NCBI GenBank assembly: GCA_001778595.1
Contig: MFHL01000005.1
Span: 1-38,078 of the forward strand
Reading direction: 5' to 3'
Origin: Candidatus Giovannonibacteria bacterium RIFCSPHIGHO2_02_FULL_44_11
Lineage (GTDB): Bacteria > Patescibacteriota > Minisyncoccia > UBA11713 > 2-01-FULL-45-33
DNA length: 38,078 bases
The position numbers and the translations under genes were made by a program. This document shows, one piece after another, positions 4,063 to 15,886 of the stretch (the stretch's first letter is position 1; every line of letters starts with the position of its first letter). The notes under the pieces were generated by a model that was given only the letters and a program-made list of their open reading frames with translations, was not told where the DNA came from and did no database searches.

Positions 4063-6186
4063 ATGGACCTAAGTACTCCACTCGAGCAAATTTTCAGGCA
4101 ATTATCGCCGAAGCAAAAGTCCGGGCTGAAAAATTTAGGTTTAAAAACCGCCGAAGATTTACTCGGGCATTTCCCGTACCGCTATGAAAATCCTGCCGAT
4201 TTAAAAAAAATAGCGGAAGTTATAACAGGAGAAAAAGTCCGCATATGGGGCAGAGTCCAAAAAATAGACTTTGAGAAAACATGGAAGAAAAAAATGAATA
4301 TCGCCTACGCCACGGTGGAAGATCCAACGGGGCGCATCAAAATGGTCTGGTTCAGGCAGCCTTATATCGCGCGAATGCTGCCAGCCGGCTCATGCGCGAT
4401 ATTTTCGGGGACAGTTGCATCTCGTAAAGACGGATATTATATAGCAAACCCGCTCTATGAGCGAGTTGCCTGCAGTGTTGTACCCGAATTTACCAAAGAA
4501 GATTCCTCAAGGCTCCAGCCTCTTTATCCTTCAACCGCGGGTCTATCGTCGCTTTGGATATCAAAAGCGGTTGTCAAAGTCCTCGCGCTCGTAAAAGCGG
4601 ATGAATTTTTGCCGGAAAAAATAATAGAAAAATATCATCTCCCGACTCTGCAAACGGCGCTCCGCTGGGCGCATATTCCGAAAACAGAAGAACACTCAAG
4701 CGCCGCAAAAAAAAGATTTGCTTTTGAAGGGGTGTTTCTGATGCAATTAATGCGCGCTTCGCAAAAAGAAGAGATAAAAAAAACCGCGGGAATAAAACTT
4801 TCCAATATTGAAGCATTAAGGGATGAATTTATAAAACTTCTGCCTTTCGGCCTTACGGACGCGCAAAAAAAATCCATAGAAGACATATTGTCTGACCTCA
4901 AATCTGGCCACCCGATGAACAGGCTTCTGGAGGGCGATGTGGGTTCTGGTAAAACCGCCGTTGCCGCGTGCGCCGCCTATATCGTGGCAAAAAACGGGAT
5001 GCAGGCGGCGTATATGGCCCCAACCGAAATTTTGGCGCGCCAACATTTTGAAACTTTTTCAAAAGTACTGGGAAAAGCAAACATCAAAGTAGGCCTTCTT
5101 ACTTCGGGCTTTTCAGAAAAATTTCCGTCAAAAATAGCAAGGGAAAAATCAACGCATGTTTCCCGCTCACAGCTCTTAAAATGGGTCCGTGAAGGCGAAT
5201 TTCCGATTTTGATAGGAACGCATTCTTTAATCGAAAAAAAGGTGGAATTCAAAAACCTGGCTTTGGCGATGGTAGATGAACAGCACAGATTCGGAGTGTC
5301 CCAGCGCGGAAAACTTTCGCACAAGGAATCGGGCATGCCAATGCCGCATTTCCTTTCAATGACCGCGACCCCCATTCCGCGCACGCTGGCGCTCACAATC
5401 TACGCGGACCTCGACCTTTCGGTTATCAGCGAAATGCCGCTGGGAAGAGTGCCTATTGATACAAAAATAGTGCCCCCGAAAGACAGAAACTTGGCATATG
5501 AATTTATCAGACAAAAATTGAATCAAGGCGAGCAGGCATTCGTTATCTGTCCTCGGATAGAGCCTGCGGAGCCATCGTCCGAGGGCTTTATGCAAGCCGA
5601 GATGAAATCGGTAAAAGAAGAATACAAAAAACTGAACGAAAAAATATTTCCTGAATTTGAAATAGCGCTGATGCACGGCAAGCTTACGCCGAAAGAAAAA
5701 GATGAAACAATGCGCGTCTTCCGTGAAAATAAAATCCAAGTATTAGTTTCTACGTCCGTAGTTGAAGTTGGGGTGGATGTCCCAAACGCGACAATAATGA
5801 TGATAGAGGGCGCGGAGCGCTTCGGTCTGGCGCAGCTTCACCAATTCCGAGGGCGCGTGGGCAGGGGCGAGAAAAAATCGCATTGCTTTGTTTTGCCGTC
5901 GTCATACTCCGCGGACATTTTCAGGCGCTTAAAAGCGCTCACGGAAGCCAAAACCGGATTTGAGCTTGCGGAATACGATTTGGAATTCAGGGGTGCGGGT
6001 GAACTTTCAGGGCGCAAACAATCCGGTCTCTCCGACATCGGCATGGAAGCGTTAAAAAATTTGAAAATGGTGGAAGCCGCACGCTTTGAAGCGCGCGAAA
6101 TAATTGAGCAAAAAATTTTGGGAAAATATCCTCTGCTTGAGACAAAAATAAAAGAGCTCCGGATGGAGCCCCTGCATTTTGAGTAA
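4063..6186 (+). CDS. recG: ATP-dependent DNA helicase RecG
   Basis: OB/wedge N-terminus, Walker A GDVGSGKT, DEQHRFG box, TATPIPRTLA, QLHQFRGRVGRG motif VI. 707 aa. Confidence 0.95.
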   Translation: MDLSTPLEQIFRQLSPKQKSGLKNLGLKTAEDLLGHFPYRYENPADLKKIAEVITGEKVRIWGRVQKIDFEKTWKKKMNIAYATVEDPTGRIKMVWFRQPYIARMLPAGSCAIFSGTVASRKDGYYIANPLYERVACSVVPEFTKEDSSRLQPLYPSTAGLSSLWISKAVVKVLALVKADEFLPEKIIEKYHLPTLQTALRWAHIPKTEEHSSAAKKRFAFEGVFLMQLMRASQKEEIKKTAGIKLSNIEALRDEFIKLLPFGLTDAQKKSIEDILSDLKSGHPMNRLLEGDVGSGKTAVAACAAYIVAKNGMQAAYMAPTEILARQHFETFSKVLGKANIKVGLLTSGFSEKFPSKIAREKSTHVSRSQLLKWVREGEFPILIGTHSLIEKKVEFKNLALAMVDEQHRFGVSQRGKLSHKESGMPMPHFLSMTATPIPRTLALTIYADLDLSVISEMPLGRVPIDTKIVPPKDRNLAYEFIRQKLNQGEQAFVICPRIEPAEPSSEGFMQAEMKSVKEEYKKLNEKIFPEFEIALMHGKLTPKEKDETMRVFRENKIQVLVSTSVVEVGVDVPNATIMMIEGAERFGLAQLHQFRGRVGRGEKKSHCFVLPSSYSADIFRRLKALTEAKTGFELAEYDLEFRGAGELSGRKQSGLSDIGMEALKNLKMVEAARFEAREIIEQKILGKYPLLETKIKELRMEPLHFE
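6143..6186 (+). repeat. recG 3'-terminal sequence, copy 1 (the genuine gene end)
   Basis: caaaaataaaagagctccggatggagcccctgcattttgagtaa, which encodes ...KIKELRMEPLHFE*. Confidence 0.9.
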
Positions 6187-6522
6187 TTATTTTAAAAACC
6201 TTTTTGTGGCACGCTTGGAATAGCCGCTCGCCCTGCATATGACCGTTGAAATCTCATATAAATCCGTCGGCAATCCTCCGGCATTATAAATTTTACCCCA
6301 TGCTTTTTTTTGTTTTTTATCCAGTTTTACGTGTTTTTTAACATCAAGTTCCGGTCTCCAGAAATAAGAAAATGCCTCCGGCACAGAAAGTAAAATTTCT
6401 TTCAACCTTTCTTCTCTTACAAAAACAGGCATATCAAGGCTAGATGACCCGCCGGGCAACTTTCTAATTTCATGAAAAATTTCTTTCCAGTTCTTTCTCC
6501 GACGCAATTCATGATAAAGCAT
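6187..6522 (-). CDS. Hypothetical small protein (111 aa), possible C-terminal helix-turn-helix
   Basis: ATG ORF. Its stop abuts the recG stop. The C-terminal LYEISTVICRASGYSKRATKRF has an HTH-like pattern (weak). Confidence 0.5.
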   Translation of the reverse strand: MLYHELRRRKNWKEIFHEIRKLPGGSSSLDMPVFVREERLKEILLSVPEAFSYFWRPELDVKKHVKLDKKQKKAWGKIYNAGGLPTDLYEISTVICRASGYSKRATKRFLK

Positions 6523-6566
6523 AAATCCTCAAAATCAATCTAGAGATAGCATAACATGCCGTGAAT

Positions 6567-6609
6567 AAAATTAAAAGAGCTCCGAATGGAGCCCCTGCAT
6601 TTTGAATAA
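6567..6609 (+). repeat. recG 3'-terminal sequence, copy 2
   Basis: aaaattaaaagagctccgaatggagcccctgcattttgaataa. It still reads KELRMEPLHFE*. The two substitutions relative to copy 1 (cgg>cga, gag>gaa) are synonymous. Confidence 0.85.
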
Positions 6610-6621
6610 ACATTCGATTTT

Positions 6622-7053
6622 CTACAATCTTTCGATTAGCTCAATTTCCGCGCTCAACTTGGTCAATCGACAAATTTCTCGATTAATTGCTAACTGTATA
6701 TTCTTCTTGAACACCTGAGACCATAACCCACCTTTACAGACATAGTCGCCAAATGCGACGCCTATCGTTTCATGTACCAAATCCCTATAAAAATGCTTCT
6801 CGTCCTCAATATGATTGCATTCTTCTTCTTTTATCGGAAAAATTTGAGCGAAGTATATGCCCGAGTACATATATTCGGCCCGCTGCTCAGGATATGCTAA
6901 TTTTAAGCTTATCTTGCCGGCGATGTTGTGTAGTTTCCTCGCCCATTCCATACTTTCGTTTACAAATTCACATATTTTCATTGAATTTAAAACGAAATTC
7001 GGATCAAACAGAATCGTCGGTCCGTCTTTTTTACCCGTAAAATCCTCCTTCAT
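6622..7053 (-). CDS. Hypothetical protein (143 aa)
   Basis: ATG ORF with no clear SD sequence and no motif recognised. Confidence 0.45.
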   Translation of the reverse strand: MKEDFTGKKDGPTILFDPNFVLNSMKICEFVNESMEWARKLHNIAGKISLKLAYPEQRAEYMYSGIYFAQIFPIKEEECNHIEDEKHFYRDLVHETIGVAFGDYVCKGGLWSQVFKKNIQLAINREICRLTKLSAEIELIERL

Positions 7054-7165
7054 GCCGCTCAGGCGAACCCTGCGGCTCTGTTAAAGAACTGCCTTTGCCG
7101 CGCCGTTGCCAAAAATTCAACACAAATCTTCGGTCAGCTTGATTGAATATATAGCATTTCTAAAT

Positions 7166-7190
7166 CAAAAATAAAAGCCTTCTCACGATA
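7166..7190 (+). repeat. Degenerate partial copy of the recG-tail repeat (left half only)
   Basis: caaaaataaaagccttctcacgata. The first 12 nt are identical to copy 1. The remainder resembles copy 4 (ccctctcgcgaga). The ...gcccctgcattttga half is missing. Confidence 0.4.
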
Positions 7191-7205
7191 ACTATAAACG
7201 ACTAA

Positions 7206-7241
7206 GCAAGTATCTCACTACGACCGTGGTCAAACACTTGC
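7206..7241. repeat. 36-bp imperfect palindrome, copy 1 (downstream of the PaaX-like gene)
   Basis: gcaagtatctcactacgaccgtggtcaaacacttgc. The arms gcaagt.../...acttgc flank a cgaccgt core. It is related to 7875-7910. Confidence 0.7.
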
Positions 7242-7258
7242 TTATGCTTTTAGATATT

Positions 7259-7843
7259 TTACAATAAATCAAAATATTTAAGCAGGTTTGCCTCGTTTGT
7301 TACGCTCTCTAATATTCCGTAACGTACGTGACGCCTGATATCAAACACTTCAATGACAAAATCGATTTCATCTTTGCATTCGTATGGAAAAACAAAAACG
7401 CTTTTTTGAAGTTCGTAAAATCCGAGTTCGCGCAATTTACTCCTTAAAGCATCTCTTGCTTGGCGATTTTTCTCCGGGATATCAAACATGACAACTCGCC
7501 ACTTTTTGTCCCATCTGGGAGGCAGTTTAATTTTCAAATCGTCTATACTAAACTCCATTGCCCTTAACTTCCCTTTCTCTGTGAGCACTATCCTTGTTTG
7601 ACCATCAGAAACATCTACCATGTCGACCAACCTGTCTCTATAAAATTCTGTGATGAGCTGCCTTAAATATTCCTTGTTAATTTTGCGAAATTCTTTAGGA
7701 ATAGATGTAAAAAATCTTGATATCCCGCGTTTCGAACCCATAGCCCCTACGGCGATGCCGCCGAGAAATAAAAGCAATAATTTTTTCTTCCAAGGACTAT
7801 AAATGCGCTTTCTTTTATAGTGCGCTTTTCTAATTTTTAACAT
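7259..7843 (-). CDS. PaaX-like (Cas2-fold C-terminal domain) putative regulator with an N-terminal TM helix
   Basis: WRVVMFDIPEKNRQARDALRSKLRELGFYELQKSVFVFP matches the PaaX C-terminal pattern W..v.FsiPe..R..R..LR..L...GF..L..s.w..P. The start was moved from TTG 7861 to ATG 7843, which is preceded by aagga. Confidence 0.55.
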   Translation of the reverse strand: MLKIRKAHYKRKRIYSPWKKKLLLLFLGGIAVGAMGSKRGISRFFTSIPKEFRKINKEYLRQLITEFYRDRLVDMVDVSDGQTRIVLTEKGKLRAMEFSIDDLKIKLPPRWDKKWRVVMFDIPEKNRQARDALRSKLRELGFYELQKSVFVFPYECKDEIDFVIEVFDIRRHVRYGILESVTNEANLLKYFDLL

Positions 7844-7874
7844 AACGCCATCCTTGCACAAATAATTATTACAT

Positions 7875-7910
7875 ACAAGCGTTTCAACACGACCGTATTC
7901 AGATACTTGT
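7875..7910. repeat. 36-bp imperfect palindrome, copy 2 (upstream of the PaaX-like gene)
   Basis: acaagcgtttcaacacgaccgtattcagatacttgt. It has the same acgaccgt core and caag/cttg ends as 7206-7241 (about 24/36 identical). Confidence 0.7.
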
Positions 7911-7928
7911 TTGTTAAATAAAAAATTG

Positions 7929-7972
7929 AAAAATTAAAAGCCCTCTCGCGAGAGCCCCTGCATTTTGAATAA
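7929..7972 (+). repeat. recG 3'-terminal sequence, copy 4 (divergent)
   Basis: aaaaattaaaagccctctcgcgagagcccctgcattttgaataa, which reads LKALSREPLHFE*. Its central hairpin ctctcg/cgagag replaces the gctcc/ggagc hairpin of copies 1-2. Confidence 0.8.
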
Positions 7973-7974
7973 GA

Positions 7975-9528
7975 TTATTTCCTATGCTTCGGAGTAATCC
8001 AAAAGCCCATATATTTTCCGAGCATCAGGCGCGTCTGGGCTTCAAGGGCGGGAATTGAACCGAAAATGGTTATTGTGAACGGAACTAAAAGCCACTGAAG
8101 CGCCATGTATGTATGGCGTCTTTTTCCGTAGTGCGCGGGACGCGGAGGAAGAAGCTTCATGGAAATTATCGCCGAAGTAATAAGCCCTATCATGGAAAAA
8201 GTCATGATTACGCGGGTAATGTTGGGCAAATTGTAGGCGAGCACCAAATTATTAAATTCCCTCCCCCCCAAAAGCACGGGGAGCCAGCCCAGCGCGAATA
8301 TCATTATCGCGTTAGTGGACCAGGACCAATAGCCCTCTATCATATTGAACGTATAGTATAGTTTTGTTCTAAGCGGTATTTTTTTTCCGCCAAAGGCGGA
8401 TCCGCCTTGGGCGGAATTTTTTATAAACCCGAAAACTACATACGGAAAATTTTCCACACCCCACGCCCAGCGCCTTTGCTGTTTGTAAACGTTTTTTACC
8501 GTTCCCCAAAATGTCGGAGCGAGGTTTGCATCCATTGAAACCGGAAAAGACAGCGGCAATGATTCATAATCGCCGTCATAATACAGAAGGGCATTCCAAA
8601 AAATACGAGAGTCTTCAGACACCATATTTGTCTGCCAAAAATCAAGACCTACCAAAGTTTTAAAACTCATTGAATGAGAAGAAAAAGTCGTAAGGCGCTC
8701 CGGGCGCTCCTGCTGCATCATCTGCCAAAAAGTGCCGGACGTGGCGACCACGCGCGAGAGCGCGGGAGCATCCCAGATATTGTTGTTAAAAATAGGCACC
8801 GGCTGGTAAGAGGAGCGGACAGGGTCTTTGGCGGTAAGAAAATGCCAGGTCAATATCTCAAAATATTGCTTCGGTATCTGCGTATCTATATCAAAAGAAG
8901 AAACAATAATGTCTTCATAGGGAATTTTCATCGTGTCTATAAAAATTTTTTTTGCCTCGCGCGCCGCCCATGATTCGTTGCTGCCTTTTCCGGGGATCTC
9001 GCCCTTAATATCTTTTGGATGCATTGTAACAAAAAAATACGGGAATTTTTCCGCCATCCGGCTGAGCGCGCGCGCCACCGTTTCTCCGTGCGGACGGTAC
9101 CTTTCTTCATATGTGAGCACGACTATCATTTTTTCTTTAGGCCACGCGCTTTTGGCTATCGCTTCCAATGAATGTTCAACCACTATCTCTGACTCCTGTG
9201 ACATCGGCAAGATAACGACCTGCCACAAATGCCCCCAATTGAGCCGTGAAAGCCTCTCGGACCAGTCGGTACGCAAATGTTCCTGCATCCGTTTCCAATT
9301 TGCGCGCAGATGAAAAGACAAAAAAACTGTTTTTACCAGCCAATAAATATCAAATATTATTATAAAAAAAGCCGCGCCGACCGGATAAAAATAAGAGCCC
9401 AGTATCATTCCTCCGAGCGTAAGCCACGCCAGAAAACCCGGAAAAATTTCCAGCATCCGGTAGATTAGCTTATCTTTGCCGCTGAGATCGGGAGAGAACC
9501 CGATTTTCAGGTAATTTTTTTTATCCAT
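7975..9528 (-). CDS. Membrane-bound family-2 glycosyltransferase (processive, cellulose-synthase-like topology)
   Basis: N- and C-terminal TM bundles around a GT-A domain. Acidic motifs (FDID) and the QQRRWAWG (QxxRW) signature. Confidence 0.8.
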   Translation of the reverse strand: MDKKNYLKIGFSPDLSGKDKLIYRMLEIFPGFLAWLTLGGMILGSYFYPVGAAFFIIIFDIYWLVKTVFLSFHLRANWKRMQEHLRTDWSERLSRLNWGHLWQVVILPMSQESEIVVEHSLEAIAKSAWPKEKMIVVLTYEERYRPHGETVARALSRMAEKFPYFFVTMHPKDIKGEIPGKGSNESWAAREAKKIFIDTMKIPYEDIIVSSFDIDTQIPKQYFEILTWHFLTAKDPVRSSYQPVPIFNNNIWDAPALSRVVATSGTFWQMMQQERPERLTTFSSHSMSFKTLVGLDFWQTNMVSEDSRIFWNALLYYDGDYESLPLSFPVSMDANLAPTFWGTVKNVYKQQRRWAWGVENFPYVVFGFIKNSAQGGSAFGGKKIPLRTKLYYTFNMIEGYWSWSTNAIMIFALGWLPVLLGGREFNNLVLAYNLPNITRVIMTFSMIGLITSAIISMKLLPPRPAHYGKRRHTYMALQWLLVPFTITIFGSIPALEAQTRLMLGKYMGFWITPKHRK

Positions 9529-10762: not shown

Positions 10763-12226
10763 CTAAATACCTGAGATTTCCAATTTATTGCTATCACCTA
10801 CGGAACAAAGCGTAGCCTTTCCATTGACAATGGTCTCCAGGCAAACGCCCCTGCCCCAAAGCTGTTTTATGTAGCCGAGTGTTTTTTCGGCGTATTCCAG
10901 CTGAAGATCACGACCGTCGTGGCTGTGCTTCAAAAACAAGATTCTGTTATTATTGTAATTTGCGTCTTCCACTTTGATTACCGGGGTTTGGCCCATGCCG
11001 ACATTTTGTACCAGGGTTTTTTTGACTTTGCGCCAGCCGTCTTCCGAAGCAACTTCGCTTACAACCATATCGTTGCCTCTGTGCTGATACTCAAAAAGAT
11101 TGAATTCTCTGACAAGTTCTTCGGTCAAAAAATTGTCCAGAAAGGACGAATCTCTTGCCCATTCCCTGACTTCAAAAATCTTCTGAAGCCCGGTTTTCTT
11201 TTTTAGGTCACCGGCACCTCCGTTGCGCTCGTACATTTCCTCGTGCTTTTCGCAAATCTTGCCGATGTAAGCCTCGTCATACCGGTGCACAATGTCGTGC
11301 CATGTGCCAAACCCCACAAAATAAGGATTCAGCCCGCCGGGCGTCGGACAAAGGACTTGAGTATGCCGGACAAGAAATTCCATATGTATGTCTTGCGGCA
11401 AATTTAACGTATTGAGAATTGTCTTGTGCCAGAAACTGGCCCAGCCTTCGTTCATGATTTTCGTGTCAATTTGCGGAATAAAATACTGGGCCTGCTCGTG
11501 CACTATCGTAAAACAATCCCGTTCCCAATCCTGCAAATCACGGTTATAGTCACGGATAAAAATCAAAAGATTTTCGGTCGGTACCAAAGGAACCCTGGTC
11601 AGATCCGGAGCAATATACTCCTGTCTTCTATGGGCATTCTGAAAACTGTCTTCTCTGGGCAAAGCATTGTCCAATGCCCTCTGCTCCTGTTCTTTTCGCG
11701 ACATCTCTTTTATTGCGAGGTTCCGCCTGCATTGCAAGGAAACGGCGTGAGCCGCGTCCAGTACCGCTTCAACCTTATCAAGACCGATGCTGGAGTCCGC
11801 GATATAACTTCGGATACGGTTCGCATGGCTTTTGAACCTTTCGATGGTCATATTTGCATGGGTAGTTGCTAATGTATCATTATTCCTGAAAAAATCATTG
11901 TGCGCGTACACATGGGCCATCGTAAGAATCTGCAAAGCCAGACTATTTTCACGCATGAGATATGCCAAACACGGGTCTGAGTTAATTACCATCTCGTAAG
12001 GCAGACCGCTCAAACCGTAGTCGTAAAGGGTCTTGAGCTTCTCAAATCCCTTGCCGTATGACCAATGAGGATAATGCGAAGGCATGCCGGAGTAGGTCAT
12101 ATAAGAGAGCATTTCTTCGGAATCGCAGATTTCAAACTCCTGCTTAAACGTTTTGAGTCCGTAATTTCTTGCAAGCCGTTCAATCGGCACGTTCCATTTT
12201 TTGATTTCTTCCAAATTTACGTCCAT
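10763..12226 (-). CDS. spoVR: SpoVR/YcgB family protein
   Basis: Typical N-terminus and length (487 aa), with conserved blocks (AHVYAHNDFF, MNEGWASFWH). SD aaggag 5 nt upstream. Third gene of the prkA operon. Confidence 0.88.
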   Translation of the reverse strand: MDVNLEEIKKWNVPIERLARNYGLKTFKQEFEICDSEEMLSYMTYSGMPSHYPHWSYGKGFEKLKTLYDYGLSGLPYEMVINSDPCLAYLMRENSLALQILTMAHVYAHNDFFRNNDTLATTHANMTIERFKSHANRIRSYIADSSIGLDKVEAVLDAAHAVSLQCRRNLAIKEMSRKEQEQRALDNALPREDSFQNAHRRQEYIAPDLTRVPLVPTENLLIFIRDYNRDLQDWERDCFTIVHEQAQYFIPQIDTKIMNEGWASFWHKTILNTLNLPQDIHMEFLVRHTQVLCPTPGGLNPYFVGFGTWHDIVHRYDEAYIGKICEKHEEMYERNGGAGDLKKKTGLQKIFEVREWARDSSFLDNFLTEELVREFNLFEYQHRGNDMVVSEVASEDGWRKVKKTLVQNVGMGQTPVIKVEDANYNNNRILFLKHSHDGRDLQLEYAEKTLGYIKQLWGRGVCLETIVNGKATLCSVGDSNKLEISGI

Positions 12227-12230
12227 AGTG

Positions 12231-13541
12231 TTACTCCTTTATCTTGTCTTTCTCAAGAAAACTTTTGAAAGCCGACCAGACATCCTCTTTTCTCTGTATC
12301 TGGATCGTCTGAAAATTTGGTCTGTCCACCTGAGATAAATATTGGATCATGCTTCCGCCGTAATATCCCGCACCCAGGGGTTTGATCTCTCCGTAACCGA
12401 AAAGGTTGGAAGCGTCGGCAAGTTCCTGCGCTGCTTTTAGCGCGGCAGGATTGTCGGATTCAAAATTGTCCCCGTCCGAACAATGGAACGCATAAACATT
12501 CCAAAGGGAAAGCGGGAATTTCTCGCGAATTACTTCCAGCGCCTTATTGTATCCGGAAGAAATAAATGTTCCGCCGGACTCGCCCTTGTGAAAAAATTCC
12601 TCTTCCGTGACAACGCGCGCTTCGGTGTGATGCGCGATAAACACGATTCTCACATTCTCGTAGCGCGTGCACAAAAAACGGTAAAGAAGAAAGAAAAAAC
12701 TGCGCGCAAGATACTTTTTCATCGTGTCCATTGAACCCGACGTATCCATGATACAGAGCACCACGGCATTGGAGTCCTTGCGGACTTCCAAAACGGTGCG
12801 CCCAAAGCGCTTATTCCGGTTCCTCATCGGAATCCAATTTTTGCGCCTTTCTATCGCGCTTCCTTTACTGCTAAGCTTTGCCCTCAGCAAATCCTGCTCC
12901 GTCTGCCACGCACGCAAATTGTCCTCAAGCACCTTGGCCTCTGCTGTTCTGCCTGCGGCTTGAAGTTTTTTGATTTCTTCTTTTACCGCATCCGTTGATC
13001 TGGCGTTTCCCTGCATATCTTTAATGTGCTCTATCTGCGTTCTCTTTCTGTTCAAACGCGCCTGAATACCTTTTTTCTTGAACCCTTTTTGTTTGAATTT
13101 TTTTTCAACTTCCATCTCGCGGAATTTTTTTCTTTCCATGAACGGAAGCTCCAGATCCTCAAACATGATCTCAATCAGCTCATCAAGGTTTATTTCGGTC
13201 TCATAGTAATCAACTCCGGGCTGGTCGCCGGCTTGCTGTCCCTGTGCTCCCTTTTTGCCTTGTCCGATGGTCTGTCCCGGCTGAACATCTCCATCCCCGC
13301 CCTGACCTACGCCGGGAGCGTTTTCCCCATAAACAAAACGGTATTCTTTTACTCCGCGGATAGGAACTTTGATAACGCGTCCTTTGTCTTTGCCGATGAT
13401 AGACTCTTCGGCAATAATATTGCCGATATCCCCTCGGATAGCATCACGCACTTTTTGCCTGTGCCTCAGCCTGTCGCCGGCGGTTCTGTCGCTATGCCTC
13501 GCCCCGCCGGTTCCTTCTTTCGGATCATTGAAAATTGCCAT
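12231..13541 (-). CDS. yeaH: YeaH/YhbH family protein (DUF444, vWA-like)
   Basis: N-terminal R/D-rich DUF444 pattern, Gly/Gln-rich linker, C-terminal vWA-like block (CIMDTSGSM). The start was set to ATG 13541 (the track's TTG is one codon upstream), preceded by aaggag. Confidence 0.88.
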   Translation of the reverse strand: MAIFNDPKEGTGGARHSDRTAGDRLRHRQKVRDAIRGDIGNIIAEESIIGKDKGRVIKVPIRGVKEYRFVYGENAPGVGQGGDGDVQPGQTIGQGKKGAQGQQAGDQPGVDYYETEINLDELIEIMFEDLELPFMERKKFREMEVEKKFKQKGFKKKGIQARLNRKRTQIEHIKDMQGNARSTDAVKEEIKKLQAAGRTAEAKVLEDNLRAWQTEQDLLRAKLSSKGSAIERRKNWIPMRNRNKRFGRTVLEVRKDSNAVVLCIMDTSGSMDTMKKYLARSFFFLLYRFLCTRYENVRIVFIAHHTEARVVTEEEFFHKGESGGTFISSGYNKALEVIREKFPLSLWNVYAFHCSDGDNFESDNPAALKAAQELADASNLFGYGEIKPLGAGYYGGSMIQYLSQVDRPNFQTIQIQRKEDVWSAFKSFLEKDKIKE

Positions 13542-13632
13542 CAAAATCTCCTTTTTTCAAATATCTTCCTGACTCAAGTCGTAACATAAAAAAATCCCCG
13601 AGGCAAGCCCGGGGCAACATCGATAATAACTA

Positions 13633-15609
13633 TTAGTCTTTCCAGAGGTTGTTTGCGGCGTACTTGAGAATCACGTCCACACAGCTCTCGCAATACTCGC
13701 ATTTATCCAACAGCTGCTGGACCATCATATCATATTTTTCTCCCTGTTCCTTGTCGCGTAAGCGCGACTTGGTAATCACCCGGCTCAAATCGCGTACCGA
13801 AGCGATGAGCTTTTTCTCAATCGCCTCCTTGAGCGGTTCGTAGCTACGGAAGTCAATCTTCTCACCCCGGCGGTTTGCCGCCCAGAGATAAGCAATCACC
13901 TCCTGACGGAACCCGTCGGCAGCCGAGCCGATGATGGCGATTTGCTCCTCGATAGATTTCATTAACTCTTCGTCGGGCGCCAATTCTTCTTTGGTGTTGT
14001 GGTCCTTCACCTTGCTCTTGTTGACATAGGCTTCTGCGTGATCAAGATAATTCTGGAAAAGCGACTCGGCCTGCTCTTGGTAAGAGTGGACGAAAGCCCT
14101 TGTTACTTCCTTGTCCAGAATAGCGAGGTACTCCTTGTGCAGCGTATCCTGCAGAAATTCCAATCTTTGCTTTTTGACATCCTCACTGGCCTTATCATCT
14201 TCCTTAACCATGTTGATCAGCGCTTCCCGCACATTAATCGGATTCACGCATTTCCCGCTTGCGTTGTCGGAAAGGGCGTTGTCCAGCGCTTTCATAATGA
14301 AACGCGTTGAGATACCGTCCATGCCCTCACGCTTTGCGGCCTCGCGCAATTCCTGAATGTCAACTTTTTTCGTGCGTCCCTTTTCAATGACTTCATCGCC
14401 GTTGTAGAGTTTCAGTTTGGTCATGAGGTCGCACTTATTGGTCGGCTCAAGACGCGACAGAATCGCGAACATTGAAGCGATTTCCAGCGTATGCGGCGCC
14501 ACGTGTGCGCGGAAGTCCGTCTCGCGGATGATTTTTTGATAAATCTTGATCTCTTCGGAGAGACGCAGATTGTAAGGCACTCTCACCACCACGATGCGGT
14601 CCAAGATCGCCTCGTTGGTATGGTCGCCTTTGAATTTCTGCCACTCGGCTTCGTTGGAATGGGCTACGATTACCGTGTCAACATAAACCAATCCGTGCCG
14701 GCCCGGCGCAGGAACGACTTTTTCCTGTGTCGCCGTAATCATCGCGTGCAGGTATTCGATCTCGTTCTTAAAAACCTCGATGAATTCCACAACTCCGCGG
14801 TTTCCGATATTGAGCGCGCCGTTGAGCTCCAAAACTCTCGGATCGCCTTCGGAATAAAGATCCAGCTTGGAAATATCCTCAGAACCAATCAGTACGGAAG
14901 TGTCCTGATTGTTTGGATCCACGGGCGGAACGACGCCGATGCCGACTCGCGCACGTTTGGAAAATTCGTATGTCCGCACGGGCATATTTTCCCATTTCCC
15001 GCCGAAATCTTCTTTCAGTCTGTAGCGGCATACGGGGCAGATATCCCATTCCTGCTTAAAAAACTTTGCCGGAAGTCCGAGCATCGTGAATATTTCTTCC
15101 CGCAAATGCTTGGGAACCAGAAGCAGCGGCTCATTGAACATTGGACAGCCGTCCATCGCATAGAACGGCTCGCTGGATTCCAAGCCTCTGTGTAAATGCT
15201 CGGCAAGCGAGCTTTTTCCGGAACCGACCGGCCCCATCAGGTACAACACCTGCCTGGATTCTTCGCCTCTTTGGGCAGCCGAGTAAAAATACCGCGCAAT
15301 CTGCGCGACTGTCTTCTCGATGCCGAAAAAATCATTGGAAAAAAAATCATAAACCTTTAACGGCTCGCCCTTAAAAAGTCTTTTGATCCTGTTATCCTCG
15401 ATTTCCGTAATTGGTTTCTCGCCGGCTCTTACAATGATGTCGTTTAGGCGGGCGTGGGCCAATTTAGCAACCAATGGGTCTGCCTTAACCTTTTCCATAT
15501 ACTGCAGTACGGTTCCGCTCCAGGAACGATCCAGCTTGTCTTTCCGGTCTGATTGAATCTTGCCTTGAACAAATTCTTGAAATTCGCTTCTCTCTGTTTC
15601 TTCTCCCAT
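13633..15609 (-). CDS. prkA: PrkA-family serine protein kinase / AAA+ protein
   Basis: Walker A LMGPVGSGKSS. 658 aa with the PrkA layout. SD aaggagg upstream. Followed by yeaH and spoVR. Confidence 0.92.
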   Translation of the reverse strand: MGEETERSEFQEFVQGKIQSDRKDKLDRSWSGTVLQYMEKVKADPLVAKLAHARLNDIIVRAGEKPITEIEDNRIKRLFKGEPLKVYDFFSNDFFGIEKTVAQIARYFYSAAQRGEESRQVLYLMGPVGSGKSSLAEHLHRGLESSEPFYAMDGCPMFNEPLLLVPKHLREEIFTMLGLPAKFFKQEWDICPVCRYRLKEDFGGKWENMPVRTYEFSKRARVGIGVVPPVDPNNQDTSVLIGSEDISKLDLYSEGDPRVLELNGALNIGNRGVVEFIEVFKNEIEYLHAMITATQEKVVPAPGRHGLVYVDTVIVAHSNEAEWQKFKGDHTNEAILDRIVVVRVPYNLRLSEEIKIYQKIIRETDFRAHVAPHTLEIASMFAILSRLEPTNKCDLMTKLKLYNGDEVIEKGRTKKVDIQELREAAKREGMDGISTRFIMKALDNALSDNASGKCVNPINVREALINMVKEDDKASEDVKKQRLEFLQDTLHKEYLAILDKEVTRAFVHSYQEQAESLFQNYLDHAEAYVNKSKVKDHNTKEELAPDEELMKSIEEQIAIIGSAADGFRQEVIAYLWAANRRGEKIDFRSYEPLKEAIEKKLIASVRDLSRVITKSRLRDKEQGEKYDMMVQQLLDKCEYCESCVDVILKYAANNLWKD

Positions 15610-15718: not shown

Positions 15719-15790
15719 GCGAGCGTAGCTCAACGGCAGAGCATCGAGCTTATACCTCGAGGGTTGAGGGTTCGAATCCTTCCGCTCGCA
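15719..15790 (+). tRNA. tRNA-Ile (anticodon UAU), no encoded CCA
   Basis: Cloverleaf: acceptor gcgagcg/cgctcgc, D-stem gctc/gagc, anticodon stem tcgag/ctcga with loop ctTATac, T-arm gaggg/ttcgaat/ccttc, discriminator A. Confidence 0.85.
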
Positions 15791-15886
15791 CAAAAATTTC
15801 AGCTTACTCATCCATGATATTTGTTTGACAAATTTCAAGCAATTTGTTATCATGTAAAAAGTTACGAATTTACTAGGAGGTGTTAT

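Follow-up and report, generated by a model that had tools for sequence, protein, structure and literature searches.

Candidate Phyla Radiation (CPR; Patescibacteria) genomes are tiny and tightly packed, and how they acquire accessory genes is little understood. This question is raised by a locus of Candidatus Giovannonibacteria bacterium RIFCSPHIGHO2_02_FULL_44_11, contained in a stretch of 38,078 nucleotides (contig MFHL01000005.1, positions 1 to 38,078; here called the window). There, the 3′ end of recG recurs downstream of the gene, and small genes, one to an interval, lie between its copies, up to the convergent gene for a family-2-like glycosyltransferase (GT2). What are these copies, and how do the genes between them arrive and leave?

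Comparing the locus with recG-locus contigs and lineages from relatives (labels beginning with L or P), we find that the recG–GT2 junction of Giovannonibacteria and related Parcubacteria is, judged by sequence, a hotspot with an array of one-gene cassettes bordered by recG-end copies. These comparisons show the copies to be homologous fragments of the recG end with terminator-like hairpins, bordering units that are present or absent, or exchanged. With slightly better than even confidence, we propose that these copies, as predicted terminators, insulate the cassettes and also provide short portable homology, which host recombination would use once DNA has been taken up.

Copies of the recG end in the window

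The array and its two borders comprise the following features.

4063–6186, plus strand: recG, 707 aa, with Pfam domains RecG_wedge, DEAD, Helicase_C and RecG_dom3_C; its last 15 codons hold copy 1
6143–6186, minus strand as a predicted terminator: copy 1, the true recG 3′ end (plus strand), abutting the ORF111 stop; repeat family D1
6187–6522, minus strand: ORF111, 111 aa, an ORFan cassette gene
6566–6609, minus strand: copy 2, 12 nt past the ORF143 stop and right junction of the ORF111 unit
6622–7053, minus strand: ORF143, 143 aa, a rare-family cassette gene
7166–7188, minus strand: half copy, an A-run and a decayed hairpin with the 3′ core lost; repeat family D2
7204–7240, unstranded: left palindrome, ~34 nt, forming inverted repeat I1 with 7876–7912
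7259–7861, minus strand: PaaX-like gene (PaaX_M, E = 2e-23) with a Cas2-like middle domain (CRISPR_Cas2, E = 2e-5)
7876–7912, unstranded: right palindrome, upstream of the PaaX-like gene
7926–7972, minus strand: copy 3, the KALSREPLHFE-stop allele, 2 nt past the GT2 stop
7975–9528, minus strand: GT2, 517 aa, the conserved partner that converges on recG and bounds the hotspot on the right

The array elements are co-oriented on the minus strand, in the order GT2, copy 3, PaaX-like gene, half copy, ORF143, copy 2, ORF111 and copy 1, and G+C content is 0.35–0.40 over 6150–7950 versus ~0.42–0.51 in recG and GT2. The family assignment of GT2 is weak (Glyco_trans_2_3, 22.1 bits, below the 27-bit cut-off).

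RecG ends in ...KIKELRMEPLHFE followed by the stop. This C-terminus, of the form K(I/V)KxLxxEP(L/V)HFE-stop, is native and conserved in >50 RecG homologues; it follows that the elements downstream were copied from the recG end, and that recG itself has not borrowed a mobile motif. By its RecG homologues, the window belongs to Giovannonibacteria, a lineage of Parcubacteria. Copy 2 is 90% identical over 48 nt, with two synonymous changes in KELRMEPLHFE-stop and one A>T change in the A-run. Copy 3 is 73% identical; its centre differs yet is self-complementary, and its end is the same GAGCCCCTGCATTTTGAATAA. It sits where the native recG end is found in relatives with an empty site, and its ALSRE allele is the real recG end in L005, L008, L104, P0003 and P0032. 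The half copy matches the left half of copy 3 at 86% identity; its folding is no longer seen and it has no significance alone (nhmmer E = 41). Similar half copies occur in L005 (E = 0.02) and, more weakly, in L006 (E = 0.77), neither of which has a full extra copy.

With three mismatches allowed, the 17-mer GAGCCCCTGCATTTTGA occurs three times in the window against 0.16 expected, and none of 100 shuffles reached three. Among the repeat families scanned in the 38-kb window, the recG-end copies are the sole direct-repeat family of such kind. A profile of the copies, searched against 1.26 Mb of related loci, gave significant matches only downstream of recG and on the same strand. A family of repetitive extragenic palindromes (REPs), miniature inverted-repeat transposable elements or dispersed terminators was rejected on these grounds, the three hits in 38 kb all lying at this locus.

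The locus had been singled out by an original prediction made from the sequence letters alone, and its reading of the repeats holds up. The recG stop region does recur downstream, as three ~45-nt copies and one half copy at 6143–7972, with coordinates and readings as described; copy 2 differs only synonymously within the coding part, copy 3 combines another central hairpin with the same end, and a degenerate left half does lie near 7166. Each interval likewise holds one minus-strand open reading frame (ORF), at 6187–6522, 6622–7053 and 7259–7861. The last was correctly called PaaX-like, with an extent to be corrected from 7259–7843. The prediction also named the finding that would reduce the motif to a generic REP or terminator element, namely its occurrence at many unrelated sites, and this is not what the profile search returned. 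Where it read the copies as an integration footprint or cassette motif, the hotspot was rightly seen and the predicted terminator role on the minus strand was overlooked.

Empty sites and differing cargo in relatives

The convergent recG–GT2 pair is kept across Parcubacteria down to ~50% RecG identity, with a gap that ranges from 1 nt to ~3.8 kb. Empty sites, at which the recG and GT2 stops are 1–7 nt apart, were found in L098, L013/L101, L004, L018, L023 and L120. Elsewhere the gap contents differ by lineage and include 14 PaaX-like ORFs, HicAB (L008 and L047), alpha/beta hydrolases, a ClpP-like gene, DsbA-like and FolB-like genes, a reverse transcriptase, a large MBG-repeat protein, a P-type ATPase, exchanger genes and many ORFans; the larger cargos, of 2.4–3.8 kb, are those of L001, L069, L056, L025 and L071. 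The claim of a cassette or insertion hotspot at the recG 3′ end is thus supported by empty sites and different cargo, both of which the prediction had proposed to look for, and by the one-unit polymorphism described below.

Extra copies of the recG end occur in at least 11 lineages: the window, L001 (three), L003/L099/L116, L008/L108, L104, L110, L178 (three), L179, L030, L151, L056, L069, the L047 group and L059. The duplicated length varies by lineage (18, 21, 32, ~43–47, 46–65, 69, 99 and ≥107 nt), with the right edge of the duplication invariably at the recG stop.

In L003, the downstream copy carries the allele (ELSSS) in which recG natively ends in L098, a relative with an empty site, as would be expected if an insertion pushed the previous terminus downstream. 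That earlier idea fits L003. In L110, the recG end proper is of the VLQKE type with a weak hairpin and the downstream copy is of the ALSRE type and no duplicate of it. The L110 case indicates that copies also travel with cassettes. In the same locus (~655–700), 18 nt (TCGAATAATAATTACACA) stand twice in tandem across the recG stop and the beginning of the PaaX-like cassette.

Several individual loci add detail. HicB/HicA pairs follow recG in two independent insertions, at 10805–11219 in L008 and 10783–11255 in L047 (RecG 75% and 48% identical to that of the window), and are flanked by direct repeats of their own lineage's recG end (~33–43 nt in L008; 32 nt and perfect in L047); the right flank of the L047 hotspot is a tRNA gene instead of GT2. 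The 2.8-kb insert of L056 (863–3844) encodes a reverse transcriptase (RVT_1, E = 1.6e-20) besides two unknown ORFs; on either side of it, 99 nt of the recG 3′ end are directly repeated at 84% identity. The gap of L001 contains two duplicated GT2 3′-end fragments (TTATTTCCTATGTTTCGG..., at 8215–8240 and 9248–9275; the true GT2 end is at 9323), so both convergent gene ends can be copied at cassette borders. In L178, a 54-nt direct repeat, 89% identical and unlike the recG-end copies, flanks the block ORF111–copy–ORF143 (313–366 and 1401–1454 in locus coordinates).

A one-unit polymorphism among near-identical strains

Among contigs with a RecG identical to that of the window, ORF111 is present in the window, L090 and L094 and absent in L091–L093 and L095–L097. 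The strains that lack it are short by exactly 423 bp, one repeat period made up of ORF111 and the left part of copy 2, and otherwise differ by 5–8 single-nucleotide polymorphisms (SNPs) in 12.6 kb. The prediction had taken the same three ORFs in all relatives as a result that would speak against it; instead, exactly one unit is present or absent in strains with the same RecG.

The single site of the short allele is a hybrid of the left part of copy 1 and the right part of copy 2, so the exchange took place within their identical 20–21-nt core. Three SNPs just to the right of copy 2 (6611, 6647 and 6657) are linked to the 423-bp indel, a link that neither a clean site-specific event nor a simple deletion explains. 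It fits tract replacement, which could have come about by homologous recombination with a slightly diverged relative. A fixed-length target duplication by a transposase was rejected on several counts: lengths vary by lineage, the L110 copy is unlike its own recG end, and copies 1 and 2 compared with the empty-site allele would need three mutations at ~1 SNP per 2 kb.

In L094, L095 and L096, independent assemblies of this strain group, the contigs end 190–240 nt after recG, which would be consistent with strain heterogeneity at the array. A polymorphism of this kind was sought in two other lineages, P0004 (23 contigs) and P0002 (4 contigs), and none was seen. Independent assembly gave identical arrays in 4 to 23 contigs, with samples and pipelines that differed, and this speaks against an assembly artefact.

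Exchange of cassettes between lineages

Across lineages, single cassettes are far more alike than the genes on either side. Between the window and L178, nucleotide identity is 97.4% for the ORF111 cassette, 93% for copy 2 and 92.8% for ORF143 versus 78–81% for recG and 73% for GT2. The high identity begins within the copy left of ORF111, in its 3′ core, and homology stops at the half copy (7166–7188). The ORF70 cassettes of L003 and L178 are 95.7% identical, with recG at 82.5%. Units as small as 345–423 bp have been exchanged intact at 96–97% identity. PaaX-like genes diverge in the opposite sense, at 32–48% amino-acid identity in some pairs in which recG is at 69–80%.

The order of cassettes is also shuffled between lineages, as can be seen by reading from recG to GT2 (c, copy of the recG end).

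Window: ORF111 – c – ORF143 – half c – PaaX-like – c
L178: ORF70 – c – ORF111 – c – ORF143
L003: ORF70 – c
L006: PaaX-like – half c – ORF111-like
L110: PaaX-like – c – ORF64

Breakpoints of homology and synteny between these arrays fall within or beside the copies, and the core conserved between lineages is 14–21 nt of the copy.

A predicted terminator within the recG coding sequence

Read on the minus strand, each full copy has the sequence of an intrinsic terminator, a G+C-rich hairpin (9–10-bp stem, 4–5-nt loop) followed by a U-run just 3′ of a gene. The full copies begin 0–12 nt after minus-strand stops: copy 3 after GT2, copy 2 after ORF143 and copy 1 after ORF111. A terminator scan places the copy 1 stem at 6152–6173 (9 bp, 5 GC pairs, then TTATTTTT), with a minus-strand RNA fold of −16.4 kcal/mol (z = −3.65); the copy 2 stem (6575–6596) has −15.2 kcal/mol and that of copy 3 (7936–7959) −13.2 kcal/mol. 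The last ~45 nt of recG are laid out as an A-run, the G+C-rich hairpin and CATTTTGARTAA, and with its A-tract upstream of the hairpin the element looks like a bidirectional terminator, termination being predicted. Because the recG and GT2 stops nearly meet at empty sites, the predicted GT2 terminator there falls within the last 15 recG codons.

In those codons (6142–6186), the window, L003, L005 and L009 are identical at 9–12 of 10–12 comparable codons, as against 0.40–0.58 in the body of the gene, which indicates either nucleotide-level constraint or exchange of the terminal segment. The same fold recurs in ~20 copies from relatives with about five stem sequences (the ELRME, ALSRE, ELSSS and RLQTE/QLQSE types and a non-coding copy in L104). 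In the proposed register, 85% of cells are paired compared with ≤70% in slid registers, and the count of ten double-change cells was matched by 1 of 500 shuffles; support from covariation on one fixed register is modest because ALSRE-type stems pair in a register shifted by 2. The codon changes ELRME, ALSRE and ELSSS keep the hairpin, and we read the recG end as coding sequence that is shaped by a putative embedded terminator. G+C-rich hairpins are not confined to recG ends at occupied sites, a possibility that was dropped on finding one at the empty site of L098. The non-coding downstream copy of L104 (3722–3778) has a 13-nt loop insertion that lengthens the stem (−29.7 kcal/mol, z = −6.1), and appears to have evolved into a stronger predicted terminator once free of coding constraint.

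The cassette genes and their surroundings

Neither ORF111 nor ORF143 matched a family in Pfam, PADLOC or NCBIfam. Only three ORF111 homologues were found, and the ORF143 family has only nine representatives among 1.84 billion proteins; an ORF143 homologue (38% amino-acid identity) lies within the same gap of L002.

The PaaX-like gene is the commonest resident of the recG–GT2 gap, with 15 tblastn hits in 13 loci and in both orientations. All of the hits are inside the gap and none elsewhere in ~1.9 Mb of flanks. At least two divergent types exist, examples being window 7204–7912, L001 8240–8945, L002 7769–8473, and those of L104, L100, L110, L006 and L025. A ~34-nt palindrome (CAAGcATcTCAcCACGAcCGTGgTcAGATgCTTG and variants) flanks the gene on both sides in L001 and L002 as in the window, and is present even where no downstream gene is available for regulation; these palindromes may mark where a mobile module ends, or may act as operators.

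Just past the hotspot, the window carries a SpoVR/DUF444/PrkA trio on the minus strand (10763–15609), conserved in relatives, and a tRNA-Ile with anticodon TAT (UAU) at 15719–15791 (ARAGORN). Isoleucine tRNAs with a UAU anticodon are believed to be uncommon in bacteria.

Search for mobility genes and recombination sites

The search for recombinases and further copies covered the 38 kb of the source genome and ±8–10 kb around recG in relatives. No tyrosine or serine recombinase and no DDE transposase was found among the 36 window ORFs scanned or 41 cargo ORFs from relatives, in keeping with the earlier remark that no recombinase is encoded inside the array. No integrase or phage gene was retained in the ~25 occupied loci examined, and no IntI is encoded next to the array among the window ORFs. 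The nearest mobility-related matches in cargo are the reverse transcriptase of L056 and a sub-threshold hit in L010, in which a recG-adjacent protein of 227 aa (6011–6694) with an HUH-like HFHLLV motif scores 17.5 bits against Y1_Tnp (IS200-like), below the 23-bit cut-off.

Nor were sites recognisable as those of known recombinases seen at the copies. In 6100–8000, no attC pair RYYYAAC...GTTRRRY was found 40–150 nt apart on either strand, and neither core site lies in or next to the copies. The motifs ATAA-N6-TTAT and TTATGTNAA are absent from the copies, a consensus that may not be that of CPR bacteria. A replication terminus with a dif site, suggested by the convergent gene pair and the minus-strand bias downstream, is not indicated: no dif-like motif was seen, upstream gene orientation is mixed and there is no sign switch in GC skew at the site in 40 loci. 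A phage or plasmid attP was rejected, since the nine hits of the 17-mer in viral contigs, about the number expected by chance, all lacked the hairpin or stop context.

The footprint itself is that of integrative islands in one respect, with the end of the target gene directly repeated on both sides of the insert and single at the empty site; the integrase of such islands is missing from the window intervals and the 41 cargo ORFs. Insertion with long target duplication (PMC2853133) is matched more fully, with repeats of 39–48 nt in this lineage, a single copy at empty sites (the ORF111-less contigs of the same strain and L098 providing the alleles) and no mobility genes found. Like minimal mobile elements, the site between recG and GT2 holds different cassettes or nothing, and like an integron it has tandem, co-oriented single-ORF cassettes, each followed by a repeat.

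How the array may have formed

We propose the following course of events. In the ancestral empty state, recG and GT2 converge with their stops 0–7 nt apart, and GT2 would terminate inside the recG coding sequence. Where DNA has entered the gap, the element is found in copy on either side of it, whereby recG keeps its C-terminus, while GT2 would keep a terminator and each cassette gene would be insulated. Selection would preserve both copies, since the loss of one would cost recG its C-terminus, or GT2 or a cassette its terminator. Cassettes would be added, deleted and exchanged at the copies by host recombination after uptake of DNA from relatives, whether by RecA-type exchange, homology-facilitated illegitimate joining or Campbell-type insertion, and no array-encoded recombinase would be required. 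Since the copies share a 14–21-nt core while the flanking genes are only ~75–80% identical, they could serve as short portable homology; no other stretches of the region are as well conserved between the exchanging lineages. Such movement by transformation and homologous recombination would be in keeping with the linked SNPs and the mosaic identity.

The first duplications would have been insertions with long target duplication, a pattern documented in other bacteria and of unresolved mechanism (PMC2853133). Inserts of this class carry no mobility gene, lie between direct repeats (>30 bp) of a unique target and are found mainly in naturally competent species; two of those in H. influenzae have 46-bp repeats that overlap a gene 3′ end (PMC2853133). 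The com genes are conserved across CPR bacteria, and transformation with homologous recombination has been demonstrated in Saccharibacteria, not outside them (PMC10633639). The variable duplicated length, the mismatched copy of L110, the duplicated GT2-end fragments of L001 and the lack of an integrase are, as we read them, evidence against a fixed-site mechanism.

Several points weigh against this account. Some junctions, such as that between the ELSSS-type copy and ORF111 in L178, appear to need exchange within 14–21 nt of identity; that is a short stretch for exchange of the RecA type, and a site-specific enzyme would be the better fit. The beginning of the cargo lies in all cases at the recG stop or a few nucleotides from it, a strikingly constant right edge, and within Giovannonibacteria the copies are uniformly ~43–47 nt. 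Termination at the copy hairpins is a prediction, the competence of this lineage is assumed from other CPR bacteria, and the origin of the first duplication has no mechanistic account. All sequences are, moreover, metagenome-derived, but these arrays came out alike from independent samples and different assemblers.

The most serious competitor, though an unlikely one, is a site-specific system acting in trans, in which an Xer-like, integron-like or other recombinase would use the palindrome and the CATTTTGARTAA core of the recG end to move circular one-gene cassettes, as at attI/attC or dif. The array is laid out as in an integron, or in a cluster of attC sites lacking an integron integrase (CALIN), with single ORFs mostly in one orientation and ~45-nt imperfect palindromes whose flanks are conserved and whose variable stems compensate. 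The ORF111 unit behaves as a circular permutation (the left-end gaGtaa and the A-run and loop variants of the right copy travel together in the window and L178), and even where the hairpins of two copies differ, the junctions fall within a core of ≤21 nt. The right edge is constant, and lineages at ~50% RecG identity that share the terminal HFE-stop codons have the same hotspot. Such a system predicts a circular-cassette junction formed of the left part of copy 2 and the right part of copy 1 (...AAAATTAAAAGAGCTCCGAATGGAGCCCCTGCATTTTGAGTAATTATTTT...). What speaks against it is that no recombinase was found in the 38 kb or any cargo, that the attC R′′/R′ cores and an ATAA-N6-TTAT dif-like core are missing from the copies, that the scan of viral contigs for the core gave chance hits only, and that the skew and orientation data do not indicate a replication terminus. 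Nor does a specific site account for repeats that range from 18 to >100 nt, for half copies that persist without the core, for the GT2-end fragments and other long direct repeats at junctions, or for the three flanking SNPs linked to the indel. On the last of these and on repeat length, the site-specific integration put forward in the original prediction is not supported; its alternative of an integron-like array with the motif as recombination site survives as a layout, no attC core sites or IntI having been found. A bolder form, which we consider quite improbable, would make the copies the recombination sites of an undescribed CPR cassette system distant from its integrase, with the recG-embedded hairpin in the part of attI/attC and one-gene circles entering at the recG-proximal end through a trans factor. 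Candidates for that factor are an Xer-type enzyme or the PaaX-like protein, which has a Cas2-like domain, is found in the gap only and is flanked by palindromes. If this were so, the recG-proximal place of the latest exchanged cassettes (ORF111 in the window, ORF70 in L178) would reflect polarised acquisition.

Direct repeats of a gene 3′ end around foreign DNA of lower G+C content are also the classical footprint of integrative elements, and the array might consist of integrase islands or prophages inserted in tandem at the recG 3′ end, their attP mimicking the gene end, that later decayed to attL/attR scars. The 2.4–3.8-kb cargos of L001, L069, L056, L025 and L071 would be in keeping with such remnants. 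We think this very unlikely, however, because none of the ~25 occupied loci examined has an integrase or phage gene, units of 345–423 bp were exchanged intact and recently at 96–97% identity, the population polymorphism concerns one tiny unit, and decay would not leave each gene neatly paired with a terminator hairpin. Hardly any credence, finally, is due to an old vertical array that arose by one local duplication and changed by differential loss only. Deletion between copies 1 and 2 would yield the observed hybrid site, and the PaaX-like gene with its adjacent copy is widespread enough that it could be ancestral. But a simple deletion leaves the three indel-linked SNPs unexplained, the cassette order is shuffled, PaaX-like genes are in some pairs far more diverged than recG, and cassettes are 93–97% identical where the flanking core genes are 73–82%, which largely refutes a purely vertical origin. 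Its variant, an assembly artefact at the shared repeat, could draw on the contigs that break near the site, and is countered by the identical arrays in 4 to 23 contigs from different samples and pipelines.

Implications and relation to known systems

Under host recombination at terminator copies, the locus would offer a concrete route for accessory genes in CPR bacteria, by which small genes are stacked and traded at a ~45-nt element between lineages ~20% diverged. The traded genes include toxin–antitoxins, a reverse transcriptase, regulators and ORFans, with no mobility gene among them. The locus would also give the long-target-duplication pattern a multiply hit, population-polymorphic example in which to seek intermediates, would provide a case in which a terminator hairpin restricts the synonymous sites of a gene, and could serve future genetics as a natural neutral insertion site with built-in predicted terminators.

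Some likenesses to known systems do not go beyond layout. Integron arrays and CALINs have promoterless-looking single-ORF cassettes, mostly in one orientation, with imperfect palindromes whose outer parts are conserved and whose variable centres compensate, ORF stops that abut the repeat and, in CALINs, no integrase nearby. Here, by contrast, the ~45-nt repeats derive from recG coding sequence, resemble Rho-independent terminators and lack R′′/R′ (attC sites have these cores around an imperfect palindrome of ~55–140 bp), their length varies by lineage, no IntI was found and the array occupies one conserved chromosomal junction. Integrative mobile elements exploiting Xer (IMEX) and the pdif modules of Acinetobacter plasmids likewise include small recombinase-less modules, often toxin–antitoxins, that are bounded by short repeated sites for a recombinase of the host and stack in tandem at a single place on the chromosome. 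Xer/dif sites have 28–31 bp, with two ~11-bp arms around a 6–8-bp centre, and lie at the replication terminus; at our locus no 11-6-11 XerC/D-type site is recognisable (the CPR consensus may differ), there is no terminus skew switch or upstream orientation bias, and all repeats are direct. Bidirectional intrinsic terminators share the A-tract, G+C-rich hairpin and T-tract common to two convergent genes, but here the element lies inside the last 15 codons, with codon changes that compensate in the hairpin (ELRME, ALSRE, ELSSS and RLQTE), and is copied as a unit.

Closer in kind are the minimal mobile elements of Neisseria, a concept said to come from Saunders and Snyder in 2002. These are alternative small cassettes between two conserved genes, without mobility genes, and their movement is attributed to transformation, with homologous recombination in the flanking sequence (PMC1797815). 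They are not defined by internal junction repeats, whereas at recG a copy of the gene's terminus delimits each cassette, cassettes stack in tandem and breakpoints fall in the repeats rather than in flanking genes. Insertions with long target duplication (Nobusato et al. 2000; Furuta, Abe and Kobayashi 2010, PMC2853133) have no mobility gene, direct repeats of >30 bp and variable length that are single-copy in the empty site, a target that often overlaps a gene 3′ end and, as cargo, often an addiction module, for which HicAB in L008 and L047 is the counterpart. They differ in that the target is here hit repeatedly, giving an array of 3–4 units, and is a predicted terminator in coding sequence. 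The repeats, moreover, serve again as junctions when lineages exchange cassettes, restriction–modification genes are not the cargo and the host is a CPR bacterium.

By analogy, then, the locus seems to combine the workings of a minimal mobile element with those of an insertion with long target duplication, and to share the layout, and no more, of an integron or CALIN. What appears to be new is that the repeatedly used target is a predicted bidirectional terminator within a coding sequence, and that its copies, in CPR bacteria, would stack into an array and act as junctions for exchange between lineages.

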